Shown one piece after another: positions 1-1,144 of a DNA stretch of 5,526 nt. Position 1 is the stretch's first letter. Each line of letters begins with the position of its first letter. Position numbers and translations under genes: made by a program. Source of the stretch: a virus (Duplodnaviria > Heunggongvirae > Uroviricota > Caudoviricetes); IMG/VR virus record IMGVR_UViG_2671180669_000010; one strand, written 5' to 3'. The notes below the pieces were generated by a model. That model worked only from the letters and a program-made list of their open reading frames with translations, was not told the DNA's origin and did no database searches.

Positions 1-55
1 GTGAGAACCTTAAGGAAACAACATGTTGGGTGGAGCGGACAATCCAAATGGCGAA

Positions 56-1144
56 TTACCGTCTTATATCACTGGCGCTGACACCGTTCCATACCGGCAT
101 ACAGCGCATCGCCGAGCAGAAATCACTGAGCACATCCCACGCCTTGCGCTGTGTGGTCAGGTACGCATTACAGGTAATGCGCGGCTCCGTGCCGCCAAAG
201 CCGTCCGGCACCGACTGGTCGCAATTCTGGCCGATGACATACAGCGCCCATTTATCCACATCTGCCGCACCAAGACGTTTCCCCATGCCGTAGCGCGGGT
301 GGGTCAGCATATCCCACAGACACCAGGCCATGTTGTTGCTGTATGCCGGTTTAAACGTTCCGTCCCAGATACCGCTGTATTGCCGCGTCTGCGGGTTATA
401 ATTCGACGGCACCTGCAGAATACGCCCGCGCAGATGATAATTACGGCTCACCTGCTGGCTGCCGAACTGCTCCGAATCCACCTGCACGCCGACCAGTGCC
501 GTGTTCGGGTAGCACTGTTTCACATCGATGATTTCGGTGTATGACGACCAGAGCGTTTTGTTCTGCAGCTGGTCTGTGGTGCTGTCCGGCGTCATTCTGC
601 GCATCCGGATATTAAACGGGCGCGGCGGCAGGTTATCCACCACCACCGAGGCCAGATACTGCGAGGTGGTTTTGCCCTTAATGGTGATGTCTTTTTCCGT
701 CACCCAGCCACCATTACGCTGTATCTGAACCAGCAGGCGGACTTCCGACGGATTCCGGTCCCCCTTTGAGGTGGTTTCCACCAGTGCCTGCACACCGAAG
801 GTAAAGCGCAGACGGTCGATGTTTGCAGACGTGATAGTCCGGGTGATCGGCGTGTCGTATTTCACTTCCGTACCCAGCACCGTCTCGGAGCCGGAAGATT
901 CAAACCCCTCCGGCGGTGTCTGCTCCTGCTCACCGGCACGGAACACCACCGTGACACCGGCGATGTTGGTATTCCCCTCAGTGTCCAGCACCGGCGTACT
1001 GTTCAGCAGCACGCTTTTTAATCCATCCACCGGACCTTCAACCGGCCCTTCGCTGATGGCATCGATCACACTCAGCAACTGCGTGGACTTCAGGTTGTCC
1101 TTCGCTTCGCGCGGGGTATGCCCCTTACTGCTTCCTTTACCCAT
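56..1144 (-). CDS. J: Tail tip attachment / host specificity protein J (central tail fibre), N-terminal 362 codons only; frame ends at TAA 56-58, far short of the >1000 aa typical of J
   Basis: Translation begins MGKGSSKGHTPREAKDNLKSTQLLSVIDAISEGP... and is near-identical along its length to the N-terminus of lambda gpJ as I recall it (memory, not a search). GGAG Shine-Dalgarno lies 8 nt upstream of the ATG at 1144..1142. Recognisable similarity runs to ...CSAMRCMPVWNG (about position 83), then reads VSASDIRR-stop. Confidence 0.85.
   Translation of the reverse strand: MGKGSSKGHTPREAKDNLKSTQLLSVIDAISEGPVEGPVDGLKSVLLNSTPVLDTEGNTNIAGVTVVFRAGEQEQTPPEGFESSGSETVLGTEVKYDTPITRTITSANIDRLRFTFGVQALVETTSKGDRNPSEVRLLVQIQRNGGWVTEKDITIKGKTTSQYLASVVVDNLPPRPFNIRMRRMTPDSTTDQLQNKTLWSSYTEIIDVKQCYPNTALVGVQVDSEQFGSQQVSRNYHLRGRILQVPSNYNPQTRQYSGIWDGTFKPAYSNNMAWCLWDMLTHPRYGMGKRLGAADVDKWALYVIGQNCDQSVPDGFGGTEPRITCNAYLTTQRKAWDVLSDFCSAMRCMPVWNGVSASDIRR

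Follow-up and report, generated by a model that had tools for sequence, protein, structure and literature searches.

The J gene of a Shigella sonnei prophage, the 5' part of which lies at the left end of the 5,526-bp stretch of DNA analysed here (the window), is almost certainly interrupted in codon 354 by a 2,130-bp insertion sequence (IS) of the IS21 family. This insertion would account for the abrupt break in J similarity, for the in-frame stop codon that follows it, and for the position of the contig edge. An exact look-up of the 362-aa product of the J frame showed that the whole window is contig CXEX01000207.1 of the S. sonnei draft assembly GCA_001261655.1, a fragmented short-read draft of more than 200 contigs.

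Tail Module of the Window

Gene calls and Pfam matches identified the minus strand of the window as the lambda-type tail module of an S. sonnei prophage. The C-terminal 530 codons of the tape-measure gene H (3934–5526) are cut only by the contig end, and M (3608–3937), L (2910–3608), K (2162–2905), and I (1623–2165), all on the minus strand, are intact. When positions 84–5526 were compared with the prophage of E. coli APEC E12049, the match was ungapped, at 99.89% identity, and no lesion besides the J interruption was found within the window. At the far end, in H, homology to the intact prophage reaches the last base (5526), where the contig ends, and sister contigs begin elsewhere, either in H or in L. 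From this pattern, the contig end inside H seems to reflect low coverage or the collapse of prophage repeats, not a further insertion.

Between I and J lies a 112-aa lipoprotein-like ORF (1211–1549, minus strand) with the signal MNKTILFCTIIALTGC, assigned to phrog_914, a group of unknown function; searches of Pfam and NCBIfam gave no match. Its GC content is 36%, versus 57–58% in the flanking genes, and the spacer on the I side has 22% GC. More than 1,000 contigs carry the ORF, which also occurs in the intact prophage of E. coli. It looks like a moron, with a role that is possibly surface-related or in exclusion. Between the end of this ORF and the J ribosome-binding site, close before the latter and outside the interruption, the minus strand carries a terminator-like hairpin at 1167–1187 (GAGCCGCC-TTT-GGGCGGCTT, then TGTTGTTTAT).

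Proximal Piece of J

As read, the J frame spans 56–1144 on the minus strand and comprises 362 codons followed by TAA at 56–58 (tta on the plus strand; the end coordinate includes the stop). The initial annotation had described this frame and its stop, which the ORF list and the sequence bear out, as well as the reading through into VSASDIRR and the openness of the same frame from the stop to the window edge, both of which can be read from the translation of 1–1144 (minus strand), ending in ...CMPVWNGVSASDIRR*FAIWIVRSTQHVVSLRFS. The ORF is composed of 354 J codons, eight IS-encoded codons (VSASDIRR), and the TAA; in the last Gly codon of the J part, GG comes from J and T from the IS. The J-derived portion, codons 1–354 of 1,159, occupies 84–1144 on the minus strand and includes the FNIII-A_GpJ domain.

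In a megablast search of 5,426 complete E. coli genomes, positions 84–1250 aligned to gpJ at up to 99.7% identity, and among the matches listed none of those in the J region extended below 84. The J part itself (84–1144) is 99.7% identical to gpJ of APEC E12049. Similarity to J had been said to be lost near position 82; the abrupt break is real, but alignment with intact J puts it exactly between 83 and 84. PHROG J profiles cover residues 1–354/356 only, with phrog_31 ('central tail fiber J') at 1–354, and Pfam PF24801 matches residues 86–207 of the J piece. Database entries for the 362-aa product (CSS48324.1, CSS98436.1, and CST08497.1) name it 'host specificity protein [Shigella sonnei]'.

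IS21-Family End at Positions 1–83

Positions 1–83 (minus strand; TGTCAGCGCCAGTGATATAAGACGGTAATTCGCC... on the J strand) are the terminal 83 bp of an IS21-family element, with the left inverted repeat at the istA-proximal end. A complete 2,130-bp copy (L001, 1954–4083), which encodes istA (390 aa) and istB (265 aa), has exactly these bases at that end (100% identity). IstA scored 284 bits against NF033546 (IS21 family transposase; cut-off 160) and IstB scored 302 bits against NF038214 (IS21-like helper ATPase; cut-off 200), both tests having been run on the L001 copy, which is 100% identical to both end fragments of the S. sonnei genome. In the interrupted gene, istA and istB are predicted to be co-directional with J, the ATG of istA lying about 18 bp beyond the contig edge.

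These data bear directly on one explanation put forward in the initial annotation, namely that J became a pseudogene by point mutation, through a nonsense mutation at 56–58 combined with local divergence. The one observation in its favour is the in-frame TAA soon after the loss of similarity. However, the 83 bases past the break are an exact IS21-family end (100%) without similarity to J, the stop sits in this foreign DNA, 27 nt inside the terminal repeat, and the true continuation of J is intact on another contig (see below). We assign a point-mutation origin practically no probability.

Positions 1–90 matched 4,070 places in 2,715 of the 5,426 E. coli genomes, on plasmids more often than on chromosomes, and the genes adjoining these matches were mutually unrelated (integrase, autotransporter, IS3, IS66). 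In two annotated examples, the matching segment was the outer end of an istA/istB element. The element, frequent on plasmids of both E. coli and Shigella, found matches in 3,782 plasmid records, and one copy on an S. sonnei plasmid is 100% identical. A Tn7-like or Tn402-like end and a group II intron, suggested by the first bases, were dropped as candidates, since the annotated copies carry istA/istB.

The L001 copy is bounded by imperfect inverted repeats (TGTCAGCGCCAG... and TGTCAACGCCAC...) that end in 5'-TG...CA-3', as those of the IS21 family do. Between the left repeat (IRL, TGTCAGCGCCAGTGATATAAGACGG) and the right repeat (IRR, TGTCAACGCCACGATGTTTGACCG), 10 of the first 11 bases agree, and the similarity continues inward with a 1-base offset. 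The right end of the element is TGTCAACGCC..., giving a length of 2,130 bp; another possible right end, TGTTTGACC... (2,116 bp), was rejected because L001 and the contig carrying the distal part of J (L007) share 14 further bases. ACGA is the 4-bp duplication on either side of the L001 copy. Beside the copy of E. coli CE10 (L002), which lies inside an IS3 transposase gene, CCGT follows on the plus strand at 4084–4087, as it does at the J insertion (window 84–87); this may be a coincidence or a weak target preference.

Distal Piece of J and Reciprocal Junction

A search with residues 355–1159 of intact J retrieved an 800-aa S. sonnei protein (P0039), starting with MQDRPSDKVW and encoded at 102–2504 of contig CXEX01000209.1 (L007), which also belongs to GCA_001261655.1. 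This contig opens with 81 bases identical to the right end of the IS; ACGG comes next, and after it the remaining 805 J codons. A GTG, the earliest in-frame start codon beyond the break, begins the 800-aa protein. Next come lom and a tail-fibre gene. The C-terminal receptor-binding domain of J, lom, and stf, which the initial annotation had proposed to look for downstream, are all present on CXEX01000209.1. The distal piece is represented by three S. sonnei protein accessions, and the proximal half likewise by three.

The 800-aa protein matches the Pfam families PF13550, PF24421, PF24489, PF09327, and PF12421, and the domains of the C-terminal piece are Phage-tail_3, Ig_J, Phage_Tail_Tip, and Ig_GpJ_C. 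The two pieces together hold the full gpJ domain set, and because no single ORF carries all of it, J as it stands is, by its sequence, a pseudogene. We saw no obvious ribosome-binding site ahead of the first start codon of distal J in the L007 sequence, and production of the distal piece appears unlikely.

The same C-terminal J query also scored 2,431 bits against P0001, an S. sonnei 'host specificity protein' of 1,195 aa, compared with about 1,830 bits for intact J, as would be expected if that gene contained an internal duplication or a mis-assembled repeat. Farther along CXEX01000209.1, at about 5237–5447, the tail-fibre ORF (3323–5254, 643 aa) runs into the left end of an IS3-family element (TGAAGTGGCACACTGAATTTGG...), which supplies its stop codon and inside which the contig ends; we take the OrfA of this element to resemble IS911. 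The same prophage seems to have received at least two IS hits in host-recognition genes.

On the J strand of the window, the left junction reads ...TGGAACGG directly against TGTCAGC; the right junction, on L007, reads ...GCGTTGACA / ACGG / GCAGACG; and intact J contains a single AACGGGCAGACG. ACGG is found on both sides of the IS, one copy being at window positions 84–87 (minus strand; CCGT on the plus strand), and judging from these junction sequences it is a 4-bp target-site duplication, the same length as at the L001 copy. IS21 itself makes a 4-bp target-site duplication. When the IS and one ACGG were removed in silico (joining 84–1144 of the minus strand to L007 86–2504), we obtained a 3,480-nt ORF with no internal stop, which differs from the gpJ of E12049 by 6 nt and 1 aa. 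The restored protein has the same sequence as P0018, a J of 1,159 aa without interruption that occurs on 21 contigs, with records named from S. sonnei and E. coli.

The break had also been read as a junction, left by recombination or deletion, at which the rest of J was replaced. A join to non-J DNA is indeed real at 83/84, but nothing was replaced or deleted, the 805 remaining codons being found on CXEX01000209.1. A more general form of this idea is that an IS-mediated deletion or rearrangement caused distal J and the downstream genes to be lost or moved elsewhere in the chromosome. Such rearrangements are described as frequent in Shigella genomes in PMC8072062, and inversions are listed with IS21 in PMC12795559. 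Moreover, the J halves lie on separate contigs, so that their adjacency is deduced, the IS interior between the contigs being unseen in this genome. A deletion, however, would have removed one of the two junctions, and the assembly still contains distal J, lom, and stf. As to rearrangement, the occurrence of the same ACGG at both junctions and the exact contiguity of J once the IS is removed are the signature of a simple insertion, although a later inversion between two IS copies would leave both junctions unchanged. Since the duplication matches, the original event was an insertion, and we consider it very unlikely that deletion or rearrangement accounts for the present state of J.

Recurrence of the Junction

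The 362-aa product is also encoded on end-of-contig fragments of two other S. sonnei assemblies, GCA_001258915.1 and GCA_001252655.1. The three contigs agree exactly across the left junction and end inside the IS, after 83, 76, and 75 bp of it, and a 215-aa fragment from a fourth contig ends in the same VSASDIRR. An assembly artefact, in which reads from J and from the IS were joined into a chimera, would fit with a contig that ends inside a repeat in so fragmented a draft. Yet the identical junction was found in three separately assembled isolates, with the fragment from the fourth contig in addition, and there is a reciprocal right junction with a matching duplication; a chimera would not create a 4-bp duplication, equal in length to that beside the separate L001 copy. 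The probability of a chimeric join is negligible, and what stands of the artefact proposed in the initial annotation is that the window edge is a consequence of assembly.

A 40-nt query spanning the junction gave zero exact matches in genome_contigs, viral_contigs, and metagenome_contigs; the GTDB collection holds one genome per species, and these Shigella drafts are outside it. Nor did the junction occur in any of the 5,426 complete E. coli genomes, in which the best cover of 1–1250 was 93%, starting from position 84. A non-exhaustive search found no published report of this J insertion. The insertion is common to a few related S. sonnei isolates, and it might be used to mark the lineage of a small clade within this species.

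Proposed Event and Its Consequences

We propose that an IS21-family element, equipped with a DDE transposase (IstA) and an AAA+ helper (IstB), transposed into codon 354 of J, duplicating the 4-bp target ACGG, and now reads in the direction of J. A ribosome translating J would then run 27 nt into the left end of the IS, adding VSASDIRR before reaching the IS-borne TAA, and the distal 805 codons would have been pushed about 2.1 kb downstream, without an evident translation start. The open frame beyond the TAA has no meaning. Short-read assemblers break at multicopy repeats; the window would end 83 bases into the IS because the assembler broke the contig at such a repeat, and one single copy of the IS presumably joins CXEX01000207.1 and CXEX01000209.1.

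Tail assembly in lambda begins with gpJ, the C-terminus of which is the receptor-binding part. From this role, we infer that the prophage is most likely no longer able to build a tail tip, and it is probably defective; the consequence suggested in the initial annotation, retained tail genes with no normal tail tip, is a reasonable one. The event would seem to be recent, as suggested by the lack of any other inactivating change in J together with the protein identity to the uninterrupted allele; the apparent restriction to few isolates is consistent with a recent insertion.

One might imagine that the insertion was selected as a 'grounding' of the prophage, or that the 362-aa fragment serves as a dominant-negative decoy against incoming lambdoid phages. 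If the former were true, immunity functions and morons (lom and the 112-aa lipoprotein) would be kept and the release of infectious phage prevented. We found no evidence in favour of either idea, and both are extremely improbable.

Comparison with Known Systems

The simple insertion proposed here is an ordinary, already understood instance of IS-driven gene decay in Shigella. In the Shigella pseudogenes described by Hawkey et al. 2020 (PMC7373316), coding sequences were likewise inactivated by simple IS insertion, and 50% of S. sonnei pseudogenes were directly attributable to it, more than to any other route. That study screened S. sonnei for 12 IS types, IS21 among them; its S. sonnei IS list also contains ISSso4, and its phylogenies left phage regions out of the SNV alignments.

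What these S. sonnei assemblies list as two 'host specificity protein' entries is one IS-interrupted pseudogene in two halves, a correction to their annotation. More generally, where homology stops suddenly within a few dozen bases of the end of a draft contig, a repeat element is usually the reason. The significance beyond annotation is small.

The element in J shows no difference in kind from other members of the IS21 family: IS21 (plasmid R68), IS100 (Yersinia), and the 'IS21' of S. sonnei 53G are alike in having istA/istB, repeats starting with TGTCA, a 4-bp duplication, and a multicopy habit. The PGAP label of the element is 'IS21-like element IS21 family'. A Yersinia pestis plasmid copy matched it in megablast at only about 90% identity, over 191–1671, and no IncP-type or Pseudomonas record was among the megablast matches listed for it. 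The element may not be IS21 sensu stricto but an enterobacterial relative.

As for the interrupted gene, its place in the lambda gpJ family is apparent from the FNIII-A_GpJ domain in the N-terminal piece and from the restored length of 1,159 aa, and the S. sonnei prophage has the same gene order, H-M-L-K-I-J-lom-stf, as lambda and the lambdoid prophages. To our knowledge, lambda itself carries no lipoprotein moron between I and J. The S. sonnei prophage differs from lambda in having the 112-aa moron at this place, and in that its J is split at codon 354 by an IS.
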